Assembly: GCA_964456405.1 (NCBI GenBank)
Contig: CAYVZB010000004.1
Span: forward strand, 1-62,699
Reading direction: 5' to 3'
DNA: 62,699 bases
From: an uncultured Candidatus Saccharibacteria bacterium
Lineage (GTDB): Bacteria; Patescibacteriota; Minisyncoccia; Phycocordibacterales; DATGWK01
Shown here piece after piece: positions 1 through 26,982 of this stretch. How positions within the stretch are numbered: the first letter of the stretch is position 1; every line of letters begins with the position of its first letter. A model generated the notes under the pieces. It had not been told where the DNA came from and ran no database searches. It saw only the letters and a list, made by a program, of their open reading frames with translations. Position numbers and translations under genes: made by a program.

Positions 1-789
1 ATTTTTTCGCAAGCATTTTTTGGACTGCTTCAAACAGTGTCGGAGAAATAATTGGTTCAAAGCTTCCGTCGTACCATTCGCCTTTGTGGTGCGTAAAACC
101 GAGATATACACGGCTCGTGAGCATTTTAGCGACGGAAGCTTTGGCAGGTGGCGTTCCTTTCGTGGTTACGCCGTGTTCCACCAAAAATTCAGCGAGGGTT
201 CCGAGGGTATGCGTCCCTTTGGCGTACTCTTCAAACGCTTTTACCACGATGCGTGATTTAGTTGGGTGCGGTTCAATATTCCTCGTTTTCGGATTATTCA
301 CATAGCCAAAGGGAGCGCGCACCAACCACTCGCCTCGGCGGACTTTTTGGCGGATACCGCGATTGATATTTTCAACGAGATTATCGCTGTAATACTTGGA
401 TTGTCCGAACGCCACCTGCAACATGAATTTCCCTTGCGGAGTTGGCTCAAACCAAAATGTCGGAAAACGCAAAGAAACTATTTTGGTCGTGTCTACTGCG
501 TAAATGATGCGCCCGCCGTCAACACTATTGCGAGCAAGACGGTCAGGGTGCCACGCGAGGATGCCTACGCCGTCCATATTTTCAATGCGGGCCATCATTT
601 CATTAAAAAGTTCACGACCAGGTTTCTTTGCACTTTTCGACTCCTGAAATTCCTCAAGAATTTCAAGATTTTCTCTACGCGCATATTCGTGTAATTCAAA
701 AAGCTGTGCCTCAATGGACATTATTTGGTGGTCATCATCCTCAGTGCTTTTTCTAGCGTAGATAAAATATTTTGGTTTGATTTCTTTCA
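1..789 (-). CDS. Large serine recombinase, N-terminal 263 codons (3' end lies beyond window start)
   Basis: Absent from ORF track because there is no in-window stop. Own translation of minus strand from ATG 789-787: MKEIKPKYFIYARKSTEDDDHQIMSIEAQ..GILAWHPDRLARNSVDGGRIIY..QVAFGQSKYYSDNLVENINRGIRQKVRRGEW..PFGYVNNPKTRNIEPHP. Catalytic YAR-x-ST block, DRL-x-R block and E-helix, followed by a recombinase domain typical of the large subfamily. Confidence 0.85.
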
Positions 790-919
790 TGTCATTGGGG
801 AGAACTTTTTGAATTCACAGCTTCCGCCGTAGGCGGAAAGGGTTTTGAAAAATTTGACAGCGCGATTTTGGCTTCTGCAAAATCGCTCCGACTTTCTGAT
901 TCCGACAACTTCTCTTTGG

Positions 920-1224
920 GTGGTGTTATTATAGCATTTGCTCGAACTTATTTCCAAAAGAAAATGAAGGACTAAACGCCCCGCCACCCGCCTCGCGGAC
1001 TCGGCGGACACCAGAAACAAACTTTTCTTTACATTTTCCGATTTGGCGCGCGGAAAAAGAATCTCTTAAATGGAAAAGAAAATTTTGTTTCTGGTGTTCT
1101 GCCCTCAAGGATTCGGGCTGGTGGCGGGGCTTCAGAAATTCGGACAGAAAATAAAAAAGTGGCTGGGGGTTGGGGGGAATGACACTTTTTATTTTCTGAC
1201 TAAAATTTTAACGGACTGGCGGAA
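920..1224. repeat. IR-L, 305-bp arm of a perfect inverted repeat
   Basis: Exact reverse complement of 3143-3447 (compared base by base). Contains an outward promoter, a 153-nt compound hairpin at 978-1130 (GCCCCGCCACC/GGTGGCGGGGC and ACCAGAAACAAA/TTTGTTTCTGGT stems) and an A/T-flanked hairpin at 1147-1196. Confidence 0.95.
928..957 (-). promoter_or_regulatory. Outward-facing sigma70-like promoter in IR-L, aimed at the recombinase gene
   Basis: Minus strand reads TTGGAA-N18-TATAAT with an extended -10 (TGCTATAAT). The recombinase ATG is about 130 nt downstream. Confidence 0.5.
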
Positions 1225-1323
1225 GTACAAAAAATTTGATATATTATAAAAGTCTAAAATGACAATGATTTAAAAAAATCTGCCTAAACTTTGCAAATGC
1301 GAAGCATGGCACAATAAGAAATT

Positions 1324-1481
1324 CCCGACCAAGATAGCAACCTCCTCATCAGGAGACGCTCTTGGTCGGGTCGTAGTCGTCGAAAGACGCTATGGGCAGT
1401 TCGAAAGAGCTGTCGTTCTCTCTGGTGGGGAGATTTTTGTTACAAAAATTTTCTCGCTAGAAACTAAACCCGACCAAGACA
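1324..1481 (+). promoter_or_regulatory. Structured 5' leader with mutually exclusive pairings (riboswitch/attenuator-like) upstream of the femAB-like gene
   Basis: The 11-mer CCCGACCAAGA occurs at 1324-1334 and again at 1469-1479 (2 nt before the ATG). Its perfect complement TCTTGGTCGGG lies at 1360-1370. Two GAAA-tetraloop hairpins lie between them (CGTC-GAAA-GACG at 1378-1389; CAGTTC-GAAA-GAGCTG at 1397-1412). Confidence 0.5.
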
Positions 1482-2510
1482 ATGAATAATTTTAAAATCC
1501 GAGAAATCGGAAATGGTGAAAATTTTGATCCTAGTATTTTTTGCGAAAATGTCCCGTTTACACAAGCAAGTTTTTATGGAGATTGGCAAAAAAATTTAGG
1601 CAGAACAGTAAAAAGATTCTTAATATCTAGCGATAAAGAAATTGTCGCTTATTTTCAAATAATTAAATATCCTCTTTTGCTAGGCAAAAGTTATTTCTAT
1701 ATACCTTATGGACCGGTTACAAAAGATTCTTCTGATGATTTTTTTTCCTACCTTAAACAAGAACTAAAAAGAATTTCTAAAATCGAAAATATTGTCTTTG
1801 TTCGTCTTGATTTCACACCAAAAATTTCAAATGATACTTTATTAAAATTTTTTACTAAAGCACCATTTTATACCTATCATTCGGCATATTTTCAACCTCG
1901 GGCTGAGTGGTTTCTTGGTTTGAAAAAAACAGAAAACGAAATACTCATGGAAATGCACGAAAAAACTCGTTACTCAATAAGATTAGCCGATAAAAAAGAA
2001 ATAGTTGCAGAAATTATTACCGACGATTTTGAAAAATATTTTGAGGTTTTTTATGAACTGATGACTGGAACAGCTGAACGAAATGGATTTAAACTCCACA
2101 AAAAGGATTATTACAAAAATATATTTCAAAATCTTTCTAGAACAAACTCTTATTTATCAATAGCAAAGTATGGTGAAAAGATTTTAGCAATTGATATGAT
2201 TATCGTTTTTGGAAAAATTGCAAACTATGTTTTTGGTGGTTCAAGTAATGAAGAAAGAAATCGTATGCCAACTTATTCGGCTCAGTGGAAAGCAATTTGT
2301 TATGCTAAACAACTTAACTGTGATTATTATAATTTTGGTGGTATAGCCACAGGAAATAAGATATATAAAGGTTGGGATGGTCTAACAATTTTTAAAAAGA
2401 AATTTGGTGGTGAAGAAATAACACATTCTGATTTTTTTGATTTAGTAACAAATCGAATCATATATTATATTTATAATTTTAGAAAATATCTAAAAAAAAT
2501 TATTCCATAA
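1482..2510 (+). CDS. FemAB-family peptidoglycan cross-bridge aminoacyltransferase (FemX/Lif/Zif-like)
   Basis: 342 aa. Family-like blocks: FTQASFYGDWQK, YIPYGPV, HEKTRYSIRLADKK, ERNGFKLHKKDYY, YVFGGSSNE..MPTYSAQW, GLTIFKKKFGG. About 30% GC by spot count. Confidence 0.8.
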   Translation: MNNFKIREIGNGENFDPSIFCENVPFTQASFYGDWQKNLGRTVKRFLISSDKEIVAYFQIIKYPLLLGKSYFYIPYGPVTKDSSDDFFSYLKQELKRISKIENIVFVRLDFTPKISNDTLLKFFTKAPFYTYHSAYFQPRAEWFLGLKKTENEILMEMHEKTRYSIRLADKKEIVAEIITDDFEKYFEVFYELMTGTAERNGFKLHKKDYYKNIFQNLSRTNSYLSIAKYGEKILAIDMIIVFGKIANYVFGGSSNEERNRMPTYSAQWKAICYAKQLNCDYYNFGGIATGNKIYKGWDGLTIFKKKFGGEEITHSDFFDLVTNRIIYYIYNFRKYLKKIIP

Positions 2511-2512
2511 AA

Positions 2513-3133
2513 ATGATCAAAATTGGATACACAATAATTATTTTTCTTTTAATTTCTTTAATTGTGGAAATCTTTTTCCTATCTGAAAATAAGCGAGAAA
2601 ATATATCTGACAAGCCAGCAATTAAGAAAGATATAGATTTTATAGCCCCAATAGATAATCCTCTAGTTAGAATTACAAAAAAATCTTTTGGTATTTTTGT
2701 GTCACCCCAAAATTCACCCATTACGCCAGAAAAATTTACTGGATATCATACGGGGGTTGATTTTGAAACTTTTCCAGAGGAACAAAATATAGATGTCCCA
2801 ATTGTGGCGGTTTGTACTGGTAAAATTCTAGAAAAAAGACAAGCAAATGGTTATGGTGGAATGGTAGTACAATCATGTTTTTTGGAAAATAATCCAATTA
2901 CTATTATTTATGGTCATATAAAATTATCAAGTATAAAAATATTACAAGGTGAAATTTTAACATCGGGTAATTTTTTGGGGGTTCTCGGTAATGGTTACAG
3001 CACAGAAACTGATGGCGAGAGAAAACACTTGCACCTTGGTATTCATAAAGGCAAAAATATTGATGTTCGTGGTTATGTGCAAATAGAAAATGATTTAAAT
3101 AATTGGATTAATATATCAACTTATTTAAAATAA
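2513..3133 (+). CDS. Membrane-anchored/secreted M23 (LytM/lysostaphin-type) zinc endopeptidase
   Basis: 206 aa. N-terminal hydrophobic anchor, HTGVDF (HxxxD) and HLHLGIH (HxH) zinc motifs. ATG is 2 nt after the femAB-like stop. Confidence 0.85.
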   Translation: MIKIGYTIIIFLLISLIVEIFFLSENKRENISDKPAIKKDIDFIAPIDNPLVRITKKSFGIFVSPQNSPITPEKFTGYHTGVDFETFPEEQNIDVPIVAVCTGKILEKRQANGYGGMVVQSCFLENNPITIIYGHIKLSSIKILQGEILTSGNFLGVLGNGYSTETDGERKHLHLGIHKGKNIDVRGYVQIENDLNNWINISTYLK

Positions 3134-3142
3134 TTGCTATTA

Positions 3143-3447
3143 TTCCGCCAGTCCGTTAAAATTTTAGTCAGAAAATAAAAAGTGTCATTCCCCCCAACCC
3201 CCAGCCACTTTTTTATTTTCTGTCCGAATTTCTGAAGCCCCGCCACCAGCCCGAATCCTTGAGGGCAGAACACCAGAAACAAAATTTTCTTTTCCATTTA
3301 AGAGATTCTTTTTCCGCGCGCCAAATCGGAAAATGTAAAGAAAAGTTTGTTTCTGGTGTCCGCCGAGTCCGCGAGGCGGGTGGCGGGGCGTTTAGTCCTT
3401 CATTTTCTTTTGGAAATAAGTTCGAGCAAATGCTATAATAACACCAC
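3143..3447. repeat. IR-R, 305-bp arm of a perfect inverted repeat
   Basis: Exact reverse complement of 920-1224. Confidence 0.95.
3410..3439 (+). promoter_or_regulatory. Outward-facing promoter copy in IR-R (would fire antisense into the trxB-like 3' end)
   Basis: TTGGAA (3410-3415), N18, TATAAT (3434-3439), preceded by TG. Confidence 0.4.
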
Positions 3448-3485
3448 AATGATCCGCGAGAACAGTCGGGGACTGTCACGGATTT

Positions 3486-4406
3486 CTACGCCCTCAAGTA
3501 AAGATAAATATCTTCGAGTGCCTTCACGGCATCACCAGCGGCAATGTTGTTTTGATGGTAGAGACCATCTGTGCAGTCACCAGCAGCCCAGATACCCGGT
3601 GTGTTGGTCATTTGTGTTTTTGGGTCAACAATAATTTGTCCGTATTGGTTCCGTTCCACTATATTTTTTGCAAATTCAGTATTGGGAAGTGCGCCAATTT
3701 CAACAAAAATACCCTGGACCGGAAGAGTTGTTTCTTCACCAGTTTTTTTGTTTTTAAAGGTATAAGAGGTAACAAATTTTTCGCCATCGATCTTTATGCT
3801 TTCAGTGTCTGTAAGTGCCTTCATGTGAGGATGAGCAATTACTTTCTGGACCGTTACTGGATCTGCCTTAAACGTCGAGTCCTTGTGAATGAGTGTTACG
3901 CTTTTTGTATACGCAAGGAGTTGTGCTGCTGTTTCAAAACCAGCATTGCCACCACCGACGACGATTACGTCTTTTCCGGCGAAAAGTGGACCATCACAGG
4001 AAGCGCAGTATGTTAGTCCTTTGTTTTCGTATTCTGCTGCACCAGGAATTTCGAGCTTTCGGCGAATACTTCCAGTCGCGATGAGGATTGTCTGGGCCTC
4101 GTACGTGTTTTTATCGGTCGTAATTACAAAACGTGTATCTTTTTTAGATATTTCCTTTACGTATTCACCAACCTGTAACTTCACAACGTCTCCGGCGTAA
4201 TGTTCAAGGTGTTTTTTAAGGTTTTCAGCAAGTTCTTGGCCACTTAATGAAACAGTTCCGATCCAGTTTTGAATATCATCAGAAACAGCGCTTTGGCTTT
4301 CAAAATTTGTTGTAATAAAAACAGTCGAAAGTTTTTTTCTCGACGCATATACACCAGCGGCGACGCCTGCCGGGCCGCCACCCAAAATTGCTAAATCGTA
4401 AATCAT
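3486..4406 (-). CDS. trxB: Thioredoxin-disulfide reductase-like FAD/NAD(P) oxidoreductase
   Basis: 306 aa. GGGPAG FAD motif, redox CASCDG, second GGGNAG Rossmann motif, C-terminal GD motif (AAGDC). Confidence 0.85.
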   Translation of the reverse strand: MIYDLAILGGGPAGVAAGVYASRKKLSTVFITTNFESQSAVSDDIQNWIGTVSLSGQELAENLKKHLEHYAGDVVKLQVGEYVKEISKKDTRFVITTDKNTYEAQTILIATGSIRRKLEIPGAAEYENKGLTYCASCDGPLFAGKDVIVVGGGNAGFETAAQLLAYTKSVTLIHKDSTFKADPVTVQKVIAHPHMKALTDTESIKIDGEKFVTSYTFKNKKTGEETTLPVQGIFVEIGALPNTEFAKNIVERNQYGQIIVDPKTQMTNTPGIWAAGDCTDGLYHQNNIAAGDAVKALEDIYLYLRA

Positions 4407-25953: not shown

Positions 25954-26982
25954 ATGTTACTTGGAAAAGCCTCACCAGAAGATATGAATTTGCACCCACT
26001 TCGATACAAGTGGGCATACGATCTTTACAACACCGCAGTGCGAAACACCTGGTTTCCTCATGAAATTGCTCTCAAAGAGGATCTTGAGGATTTTAATGGT
26101 ATGACCGACGATGAACGTCATGCAGTTAAGTTTCTTATGGCCTTTTTCAATCCGGCTGAACTCATTGTGAATCGTTCGTTGGCGCTTGGTGTGTATCCAT
26201 ACCTCAAGTCTCCTGAATGTCATCTCTACTTGGCAAAGCAAATGTGGGAAGAGGCAAATCACTGTGTTGCGTTTGAGTATGTACTTGAAACATTTCCGTT
26301 TGACCGCGAGAGAATTTTCAGTCTTCATCTCGAACGACCGTCAATGGTTGCTAAAGAGACCTATATCAACAAGTATTTGAAACGAATGACTGAAGTGACT
26401 CTCGATATCACCACCATTGAAGGGAAAAAAGATTTTATTCGGAATCTTGTTGCAACAAATATTGTGATGGAGGGTGTCTGGTTTTATTCAGGATTTATGG
26501 TCGCTCTTTCATTCCGACAGAGGAATAAGCTTCGAAACTTTGGTTCAATGATCAACTGGGTGCTCCGAGACGAAAGTCTTCATTTGCAGTTCGGTATTAA
26601 CCTCATTCACAATATTTTGGAAGAGAACCAAGAGCTTTTGACCGAAGAATTTGCGAACGAAATCAGAAATATTGTTATCGAGGGTGTGAATCTCGAAACT
26701 GATTACAACAAAGACTTGTTCCCGAATGGAATTCTCGGTTTGAATGCAGACTACGTCAATCAATACGTGCAGTATGTCGCTGATCGACGACTCGAAGAGC
26801 TTGGTATGCCAAAACACTATGAAGTAACAAATCCTGCAAAGTGGATGTCTGCAGCCACTGATGTGTTTGAGCTTGTAAACTTTTTCGAAAGCCAGAACAC
26901 GAGCTATGAAGTCGATACTCGAGCTCATACAAACAAAAAAACCGAAATGACAGCTGAGCCAGCAAAAGTCGAGGGGGAATAA
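25954..26982 (+). CDS. nrdB: Ribonucleoside-diphosphate reductase beta subunit
   Basis: 342 aa. Di-iron ligand blocks (EEANHCVAFEY, VMEGVWFYSGF, RDESLH). Confidence 0.93.
   Translation: MLLGKASPEDMNLHPLRYKWAYDLYNTAVRNTWFPHEIALKEDLEDFNGMTDDERHAVKFLMAFFNPAELIVNRSLALGVYPYLKSPECHLYLAKQMWEEANHCVAFEYVLETFPFDRERIFSLHLERPSMVAKETYINKYLKRMTEVTLDITTIEGKKDFIRNLVATNIVMEGVWFYSGFMVALSFRQRNKLRNFGSMINWVLRDESLHLQFGINLIHNILEENQELLTEEFANEIRNIVIEGVNLETDYNKDLFPNGILGLNADYVNQYVQYVADRRLEELGMPKHYEVTNPAKWMSAATDVFELVNFFESQNTSYEVDTRAHTNKKTEMTAEPAKVEGE

Follow-up and report, generated by a model that had tools for sequence, protein, structure and literature searches.

What is the long, perfect inverted repeat that brackets an AT-rich, two-gene segment next to a large serine recombinase (LSR) gene in an uncultured Candidatus Saccharibacteria bacterium? 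The repeat, of 305 bp, lies near the left end of contig CAYVZB010000004.1 (assembly GCA_964456405.1), which was analysed over positions 1 to 62,699 (hereafter, the window, 62,699 nt). An earlier note, made from the sequence alone, had interpreted this stretch either as an invertible segment or as the cargo end of an element mobilised by a recombinase. The latter view is well supported by an attR junction at the outer end of the right arm (3444-3447), an empty site in a related genome, and a layout that recurs across the LSR family. Very probably, the 305-bp repeat is a duplicated arm, on the cargo side, of the attachment region in an integrative island of about 4.2 kb that is run by the LSR. 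The coordinates of all features are collected in Table 1.

The inverted repeat, the empty site and the crossover core

A repeat search of the window recovered the arms (920-1224 and 3143-3447) as 305-nt sequences with 100% reverse complementarity, separated by 1918 nt, as the earlier note had described. A 51-nt piece of the arm has two exact matches in the window, where none is expected, and BLAST of the whole arm detected no third copy. Both arms, in the same arrangement and with 100% identity, are present in a SPAdes contig from a separate sample (L001, ERZ17987696). The foreign, AT-rich character that had been ascribed to the enclosed cassette was confirmed: the GC content of the cargo (1225-3142) is 30.1% (28.0% in the femX-like gene and 29.6% in the M23 peptidase gene), compared with 44.6% in the arms, 42.8% in trxB and 43.2% in the remaining window. 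The paired open reading frames (ORFs) 787..1020(-) and 3347..3634(+), with their common first 34 residues, are both present; they have no Pfam match and arise from the repeat itself.

To the right of the element lie trxB, ftsZ and ftsA. TrxB homologues with 84-88% identity share the ybeY-ftsA-ftsZ-trxB synteny, and in L094, L095 and L096, a tRNA-Val(GAC) gene convergent with trxB follows it directly. In L094, where TrxB is 88% identical, the site is empty: tRNA-Val(GAC) ends in ...GCCCAC, and the sequence reads ...GGTTCGAGTCCTCTATCGCCCAC / AATGATCCGCGAGAACAGTCGGGGACTGT. The right junction in the window reads ...GCTATAATAACACCAC / AATGATCCGCGAGAACAGTCGGGGACTGT, with the break at the CCAC/CAC core. 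Because the flank beyond the right arm matches what lies after tRNA-Val in the unoccupied L094 locus, the comparison provides direct evidence of insertion and places attR at 3444-3447. The empty-site form would read tRNA-Val-CCAC-AATGATCC. This site was found via the TrxB homologues; a scan of JGI metagenomes for the trxB-side flank gave 0 matches.

Three types of junctions were identified in alignments of 16 elements: tRNA...CCAC/b, a_end...CCAC/b and a_end...CCAC/flank, where a and b are the two repeats described below. Only a 4-nt core, (C/T/G)CAC, is common to all three; identity to the tRNA stops before the core, and identity to the flank starts after it. Within the tRNA, the core consists of the last two bases of the acceptor stem, the discriminator and one further base. 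From these alignments, the junctions can be read as attL = t-o-b, attP = a-o-b, attR = a-o-x and attB = t-o-x (t, tRNA; o, core; x, flank). In the window, the left arm and positions 791-919 together would form an intact, inverted attP-like site that also holds the LSR promoter, with 791-919 as its putative P' side.

The GTTCGAG motif of a_end, which matches the tRNA T-loop, has a distance of 17 nt to the core, as against 11 nt in tRNAs, a 6-nt shift that affects the left half-site only. In serine integrases, the zinc-ribbon-domain motif is located about 5 bp nearer to the centre in attB than in attP (Rutherford 2013, PMC3783163). The shift of GTTCGAG in this one half-site bears a suggestive resemblance to that displacement. 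The conserved GTTCGAGCAAA block (937-947) is a candidate T-loop-like att half-site.

Table 1. Features of the island and its borders in the window
Feature	Position	Strand	Basis or remark
LSR gene	1..790	-	First 263 codons, ATG at 790; remainder beyond the left edge
b arm	791..919		LSR 5' untranslated region (UTR); inverted copy of the LSR's own 3' coding end
Left arm, a module, internal to the element	920..1224		Repeat search
Crossover core CCAC of the internal attP-like junction (a_end-CCAC-b)	920..923	-	Junction alignments with 16 relatives; upstream alignment
Candidate outward promoter of the LSR	928..957	-	TTGGAA, 18 nt, TGcTATAAT; overlaps the GTTCGAGCAAA block (937-947)
Conserved structured module, ~150 nt, five helices	978..1130	- (mirror 3237-3389 +)	Alignment A1, RNAalifold, pair counts
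Inner AT-rich hairpin	1136..1207		Inward promoter-like site ATGACA, 16 nt, TAAAAT at 1179-1206
LOOT RNA (RF03000)	1281..1414	+	64.7 bits (gathering cut-off 46.4), full model matched
Terminator-like hairpin and T run	1417-1433	+	After LOOT
FemX/FemAB-family peptidyltransferase gene, 342 aa	1482..2510	+	Pfam FemAB PF02388, 3e-30
M23 peptidase gene, 206 aa, hydrophobic N-terminus	2513..3133	+	Pfam, 1e-10; lysostaphin 4qp5, 6yj1
Right arm, right end of the element	3143..3447		Mirrors the promoter at 3410-3439(+) and the structured module at ~3237-3389(+)
Crossover core CCAC of attR	3444..3447	+	Junction alignments and L094 empty site
Chromosomal flank x	3448..3485		First 29 nt (3448-3476) identical to the DNA directly after tRNA-Val(GAC) in L094

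The recombinase family, its layout and a proposed mechanism

The edge-truncated LSR gene that the earlier note had placed outside the left arm is borne out by the ORF, whose ATG is 129 nt from the arm, and by the Pfam domains Resolvase (PF00239, 5e-23) and Recombinase (PF07508, 9e-13) in the fragment encoded in the window. Recovery of upstream sequence, a check proposed there, succeeded in part: L001 extends 244 nt farther left than the window and lengthens the fragment to 344 aa, and it ends before tRNA-Val and the b' copy are reached. At E<1e-20, homologues of the 344-aa fragment number more than 7,500; they are 70-97% identical and come nearly all from metagenome-assembled genomes (MAGs) of Patescibacteria. 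Full-length homologues consist of 520-530 aa, and all 120 of the 120 best homologues of at least 500 aa also carry the Zn_ribbon_recom domain (PF13408). The closest solved or curated relatives are distant, namely, SPbeta integrase (3e-07), with CcrB and XisF far below their cut-offs. No relatives of the LSR were found among the viral contigs of IMG/VR, and hence there is no sign of phage origin.

The layout of the family was analysed by comparing each of 80 genome loci with itself. An inverted repeat of 100-140 bp, denoted b, is present in 62 of the 80 loci, with one copy directly upstream of the LSR ATG and the other within the 3' coding end. The second repeat, denoted a, is 150-430 bp long and mostly 97-100% identical; it was detected in about 20 of the approximately 27 loci with enough upstream DNA, abuts the upstream copy of b and encloses 1.1-8.9 kb of unrelated cargo. 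In the window, the plus strand of 793-919 encodes the 43 C-terminal residues of the LSR (frame 793, WGELFEFTASAVGGKGFEKFDSAILASAKSLRLSDSDNFSLGG, compared with the C-terminus in L008), and the partner copy, b', is predicted beside tRNA-Val, off-window. Duplication of both a and b is a conserved trait of different LSR lineages, with arm identities of 78-100% in other elements. The very recent duplication that the earlier note had given as one reading of the zero divergence is not the best one: the duplication is a conserved design, and the perfect arms here suggest that this copy of it is young or was homogenised recently. Additions to what the earlier note had described are the repeat b around the LSR gene, the tRNA target and the LOOT RNA. 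A contig end is located no more than 600 nt from the LSR ATG in 40 of the 80 loci, so that the repeats routinely break assemblies, and the layout explains a systematic break point in the assemblies of Patescibacteria.

At the outer edge of the downstream b copy, a tRNA or transfer-messenger RNA (tmRNA) gene begins on the opposite strand in 44 of the 62 loci, with the a_end block upstream; one locus has these two sides exchanged. The abutting genes are those for tRNA-Glu (21), Ala (19), Leu (3), Arg (1) and Val (1), and tmRNA (3); the tmRNA of L024 was detected by Rfam alone. The LSR ORF ends in a tail that is read antisense through the tRNA, for example, ...GG-PYRTRTC. In a minority of the loci (L009, the truncated L021, L057 and L082), the mirror state is found, with the tRNA upstream and the a arm downstream. 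The tail following ...SLGG is coded either by the antisense strand of the tRNA or by a_end, the latter apparently being the case for P0003/4, P0007 and P0108. Sorting of the C-terminal tails by regular expressions was too crude to yield isomer frequencies, and individual tails were used instead. A distinct arrangement is found in L016 (182-2001), where the LSR segment lies between two inverted tRNA-Ala(TGC) genes (a 215-nt repeat, 90% identical), with attL-type junctions on both sides, as would be produced by double-site cassette exchange between two tRNA genes.

We propose that the island lies between the 3' end of tRNA-Val(GAC), located just off the left edge of the window, and trxB, and that its integration was catalysed by this LSR. 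Starting from the tRNA, the order would be tRNA-CCAC-b', the LSR gene (antisense), b-CCAC-a, the cargo and a'-CCAC-flank, with attL at the tRNA/b' junction and attR at the outer end of the right arm. Each arm would comprise, from the outside in, the CCAC core; a GTTCGAG half-site that mimics a T-loop and doubles as an outward extended -10 promoter; the structured module; and a cargo-linked hairpin. The cargo would be an accessory cell-wall cassette made up of a LOOT leader, the femX-like gene and the M23 peptidase gene. The left copy of the arm would supply the LSR with its promoter and 5' UTR, and the internal a-CCAC-b would keep a full enzyme-binding site over the LSR promoter after integration has split the original attP, possibly allowing autoregulation. 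The symmetry of b and b' would keep the LSR ORF intact in either orientation. The cargo bay is predicted to flip by homologous recombination of the RecA type, and the LSR segment likewise via b/b'. As all four resulting isomers would keep every gene and junction intact, flipping would be a tolerated by-product and not a switch.

A more far-reaching possibility, which we consider rather doubtful, is that these LSRs form a distinct, very widespread family of Patescibacteria that recognises the T-loop and acceptor end, near-universal features of tRNAs, and that works as a "flip-flop" element without an accessory factor. If so, given the inverted attP that is kept and an ORF running over the att core, flipping or integration could swap the C-terminal tail of the LSR and its promoter (the a_end promoter as opposed to read-through from the tRNA), setting directionality or activity; the free form could be a 2-micron-like circle of two arcs or a single strand that folds back on itself and so restores attP as a duplex; and the bay bounded by inverted repeats could be a natural landing pad for cassette exchange, shuffling cargo between islands.

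LSRs with 94-96% identity (L007-L013) are found in MAGs labelled as Moraniibacteriota, Saccharibacteria, Paceibacterota, Nomurabacteria and Yanofskybacteria, which implies either recent transfer across deep lineages of Patescibacteria or mis-binning of small, repeat-bounded contigs. Paralogous second LSR genes (33-52% identical) are located beside or inside the islands in L014 (3976-5748), L013, L043, L061 and L091, and in L013, L043 and L061, the paralogue has a b-type repeat of its own. In L014, the 3' end of the gene, which encodes a 590-aa LSR, runs into the distal arm. The islands appear to stack in tandem.

Arm structure and competing explanations

Comparison of the elements divides the arm into an outer part of about 55 nt (920-975), a middle part (~978-1130) and an inner part of about 90 nt (1135-1224). 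The outer part, which contains the core, half-site and promoter, differs between LSR lineages; its conserved sequence, which makes up the final ~55 nt of a, consists of a -35 element, AAGTTCG(A/C)GCAAA and an extended -10 element, followed by ACACCAC. The middle part is shared by elements of the same lineage that carry other cargo and by femX cassettes beside other LSR lineages, and the inner part travels with the femX cassette. Exact copies of GTTCGNGCAAA in the window are confined to the two arms, and this sequence was accordingly rejected as a general promoter element. The 59-aa ORFs of the arms, evaluated as a hidden directionality factor, match no family, and in L108, the encoded protein is, by eye, poorly conserved although the DNA is about 78% identical; they were treated as non-coding. 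A permissive Rfam scan of the arms returned only plant and animal microRNA-precursor models (E 0.04-0.9), which were rejected as generic long-hairpin matches.

The middle part has a conserved structure. In an alignment of 11 elements, 92.8% of the cells pair, compared with 83.5% in shuffles, none of 500 of which reached the observed value; 18 of the 37 pairs show double changes, and 50-57% of the cells pair in slid controls. On the strand that runs outward from the cargo, there are 18 G-U cells and about 5 C-A cells, and a T-rich tract follows the module. The loops are conserved, and no Rfam family matches. The module and its T-rich tract are most simply read as a terminator or insulator for transcripts that leave the cargo bay, ahead of the outward promoter. 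The copy of this promoter in the right arm (3410-3447 +) points, in the antisense direction, into the 3' end of trxB (3486-4406 -), with only a hairpin in the flank (~3462-3476) located in between.

Several observations weigh against the interpretation of the repeat as the arm of an LSR island. Conservative site-specific recombination alone cannot create the duplicated a and b arms. The search for a second conserved gene in the elements, such as one for a directionality factor, gave none, which leaves excision hypothetical; among the 80 loci, there is neither an excised circle nor a locus with a_end on both sides of the LSR. Some elements, including L091, abut non-tRNA DNA, and no conserved motif was found in the right half-sites (flank x) in the junction alignments of the 16 elements. 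For this particular element, tRNA-Val and the b' copy would lie outside the window, and neither was recovered. Finally, L004, in which the M23 end is joined through the arm to the LSR, that is, with the opposite cargo linkage, is a k=141 MEGAHIT contig crossing a 305-nt repeat, and this linkage could be a choice of path in the assembly graph.

Among the alternatives, the one that survives best, albeit as an unlikely one, is that the arm-cargo-arm unit is itself mobile, as a foldback or cassette-exchange element, and that its proximity to the LSR is incidental. Genes with 58-88% identity to the femX-like gene occur across Patescibacteria, often flanked by inverted repeats, and femX cassettes are found beside LSRs that are only 46-61% identical to the one studied here (L103, L105/106, L108, L112, L126 and L127). 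Window positions 977-1481 (inner arm, LOOT and leader) are 71-93% identical to the cassettes of L103, L105/106 and L108, and to L101 (6778-10180), a femX-mur ligase-M23 operon without a recombinase that is flanked by 130-nt arms with 94% identity. Furthermore, in L006 (1069-1247, SRR6837549), the same M23-arm sequence, 100% identical, is joined to a third, unrelated flank; L006 is a k=31 unitig that crosses the whole arm, which is therefore single-copy there. The presence of femX cassettes beside divergent LSRs indicates that the cassette moved between islands, most likely by homologous exchange within the shared module, and such recombination within the structured module explains the shared inner arms. 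Moreover, the cargo encodes no transposase, the ends of the unit coincide with the CCAC core of the LSR and with the lineage-specific half-site (920-975), and the junctions of L006 and L151 are of the ordinary attR type. The arms of L101 are truncated a modules, one of them 10 nt from the 3' end of a tRNA, and this locus is probably a fossil island.

Inversion of the cargo within the LSR island probably occurs, given the linkage in L004 and the opposite cargo orientation in L152, a related element with 93% identity. Together with the location of an inverted repeat beside a serine recombinase gene, these contigs are what would be expected of a phase-variation switch of the Hin/Gin or inverton kind, in which the adjacent recombinase inverts the 1.9-kb segment and toggles femX/M23 or a neighbouring gene. 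However, the arms are identical throughout, including the outward and inward promoter-like sites, and the cargo is contained wholly within them, so that flipping alters no promoter-gene or coding junction and a regulatory switch is not supported. Additionally, the right arm ends, on its outer side, in an integration junction instead of a hix-like site; the enzyme is an LSR of 520-530 aa and not an invertase of about 190 aa; the cargo is wholly different between elements; and the arms contain an outward-facing, terminator-like structure. A switch is thus very unlikely, and the inversion looks like a tolerated by-product. Of the "invertible segment" of the earlier note, inversion as such is probable and a switch is unsupported, the arms being symmetric through the promoters. 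An LSR would not normally pair attP with attR (PMC3783163), which makes homologous recombination the likelier route of flipping. L004 and L006, which come from unrelated assemblies, both start at window position 2382; the common break suggests a variant boundary inside femX.

That one arm is a mis-join or a collapsed repeat is extremely improbable: short-read graphs do break at the arms (Logan unitigs L002 and L005 stop 30 nt into them, and L087-L090, contigs that carry trxB, run out 42-179 nt beyond the stop codon of that gene), as they would at a true repeat, but L001 independently spans both arms in identical form, and the same layout is found in dozens of MAGs, including the closed chromosome CP060229 (L046) and contigs with long-read-style names (L015).

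Cargo and comparison with known systems

The product of the femX-like gene is similar to FmhB (PDB 6snr, 1e-17) and FemX (1ne9), with a score under the NCBIfam equivalog cut-off. A 342-aa ORF at 25954-26982 was evaluated as a second femX and rejected as unrelated. In 8 of the 23 loci that were scanned, a LOOT RNA precedes a femX-like gene by 55-70 nt, with both on one strand; such sites include L099 (6803-6934), L103 (3852-3985), L105 (1027-1160), L108 (2064-2191), L112 (4279-4405), L121 (4819-4946) and L129 (4808-4934). Of 11 other islands, 10 lack LOOT, which goes with femX instead and was therefore rejected as a part of the recombinase system. Rfam assigns LOOT to the type "Gene; sRNA", and the main text of the discovery paper was found to contain nothing on its function. 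Judging from its position, LOOT looks like a cis-acting leader, similar to a riboswitch or attenuator, for a tRNA-dependent cell-wall transferase. Through the link to femX, what was an orphan RNA motif becomes a candidate cis-regulator of such an enzyme that can be put to the test. In L014, LOOT (1441-1553) precedes a gene for a secreted protein of 340 aa instead.

The femX-M23 gene pair brings to mind lysostaphin/Lif and zoocin/Zif, which are pairs of lysin and immunity factor; in the lysostaphin/Lif type, a secreted M23 lysin is accompanied by a FemABX protein that modifies the cross-bridge of the producer. Relatives of the two genes occur, as femX-mur ligase-M23, in ordinary cell-wall operons (L101), and this context fits housekeeping-type remodelling equally well.

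Neither femX nor M23 was found in the other elements of this LSR lineage that were examined. Their cargo includes HNH and DNA methylases, a LexA-fused methylase, AdoMet synthase, SerRS, ART-PolyVal and RhuM, as well as symporters, surface beta-helix proteins, a PLD-like protein, NUDIX and large helicases. In broader terms, the cargo of the islands comprises restriction-modification genes, ADP-ribosyltransferases, transporters, a seryl-tRNA synthetase and cell-wall enzymes, among others. The islands may be a major vehicle of accessory genes in these reduced, mostly uncultured bacteria.

The element belongs to the class of LSR integrative elements, with an unusual target and an undescribed internal architecture. 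Serine-integrase elements and prophages (phiC31, Bxb1, A118/LI, SPbeta SprA, CcrAB and XisF) similarly combine the Resolvase, Recombinase and zinc-ribbon domains and have hybrid attL and attR sites in which no more than a short core is common to attP and attB as well. The position of the recognition motif, more distant from the core in element sites than in host sites, may be a further parallel. In contrast to these, the islands target the 3' ends of tRNA or tmRNA genes, retain an intact, inverted attP inside the integrated element, enclose the LSR gene and the cargo each in long inverted repeats, have an LSR ORF that crosses the att core, lack an evident directionality factor, and show only distant sequence similarity. 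Current models of serine integrases do not account for the retention of an inverted attP or for a 5' UTR that is a copy of the 3' end of the same gene.

The nearest concept is that of the tRNA-targeting cargo islands (tycheposons) of Prochlorococcus. Tycheposons are bounded by direct repeats of a partial tRNA, whereas in the islands described here, the junctions have just the 4-nt core in common, and the repeats, which are inverted, lie inside the element. Tycheposons are likewise small cargo islands at tRNA genes in streamlined genomes; they are overwhelmingly tyrosine-recombinase elements, with a minority that use LSRs. The integrase genes of phage Mx8 and SSV1 span attP, and integration alters the 3' end of the integrase ORF, as it does here; these enzymes are tyrosine recombinases, and the att region is not known to be duplicated.

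Invertible segments of the Hin/Gin/Cin/Pin/Min type and shufflons resemble the island in that an inverted-repeat-flanked segment lies next to or contains a serine recombinase gene, with more than two sites in series. Unlike the island, these systems rely on small invertases that act on 26-bp sites with the help of an enhancer, and their inversion exchanges promoters or coding ends; the arms here are 130-430 bp long and symmetric, and the sites are integration sites. The yeast 2-micron plasmid, a replicon with a tyrosine recombinase (FLP) and 599-bp inverted repeats, is similar to the predicted excised circle, in which two unique arcs would be split by a long inverted repeat (a+b, 434 bp) with the recombinase target inside; here, in contrast, neither a circle nor a replication gene was seen. 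Tn4451 and Tn5397, with which the earlier note had compared the element, also consist of a few accessory genes moved by a large serine recombinase (TnpX/TndX). They have GA-dinucleotide ends and low target specificity and are not known to have long inverted repeats or tRNA specificity, as opposed to the CCAC core and tRNA 3' ends of the present element, so that the comparison holds for the enzyme class, as judged by the domain match, and fails for the ends and targets.

In the literature on LSRs in combination with the Candidate Phyla Radiation or Saccharibacteria, which our search covered incompletely, we found no published description of this layout. The junctions provide sequence-level predictions of attP, attB, attL and attR for an LSR family that targets tRNA 3' ends, a target that is rare for serine integrases. 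The family could be of use for genetics in Patescibacteria and as a new integrase specificity.

Two minor observations concern related contigs. In L003 (1-37, ERZ27282978), an identical femX is preceded by an a_end-like block, GGTTCGCGCAAATGCTATAAT, fused at window position 1427; the available 37 nt contain no LOOT, and the fusion break is not at the CCAC core. In L008 (10975-11257, minus strand), a group I intron match (55.4 bits, with a gathering cut-off of 50) is located about 1.2 kb beyond the tRNA-Ala of the island.

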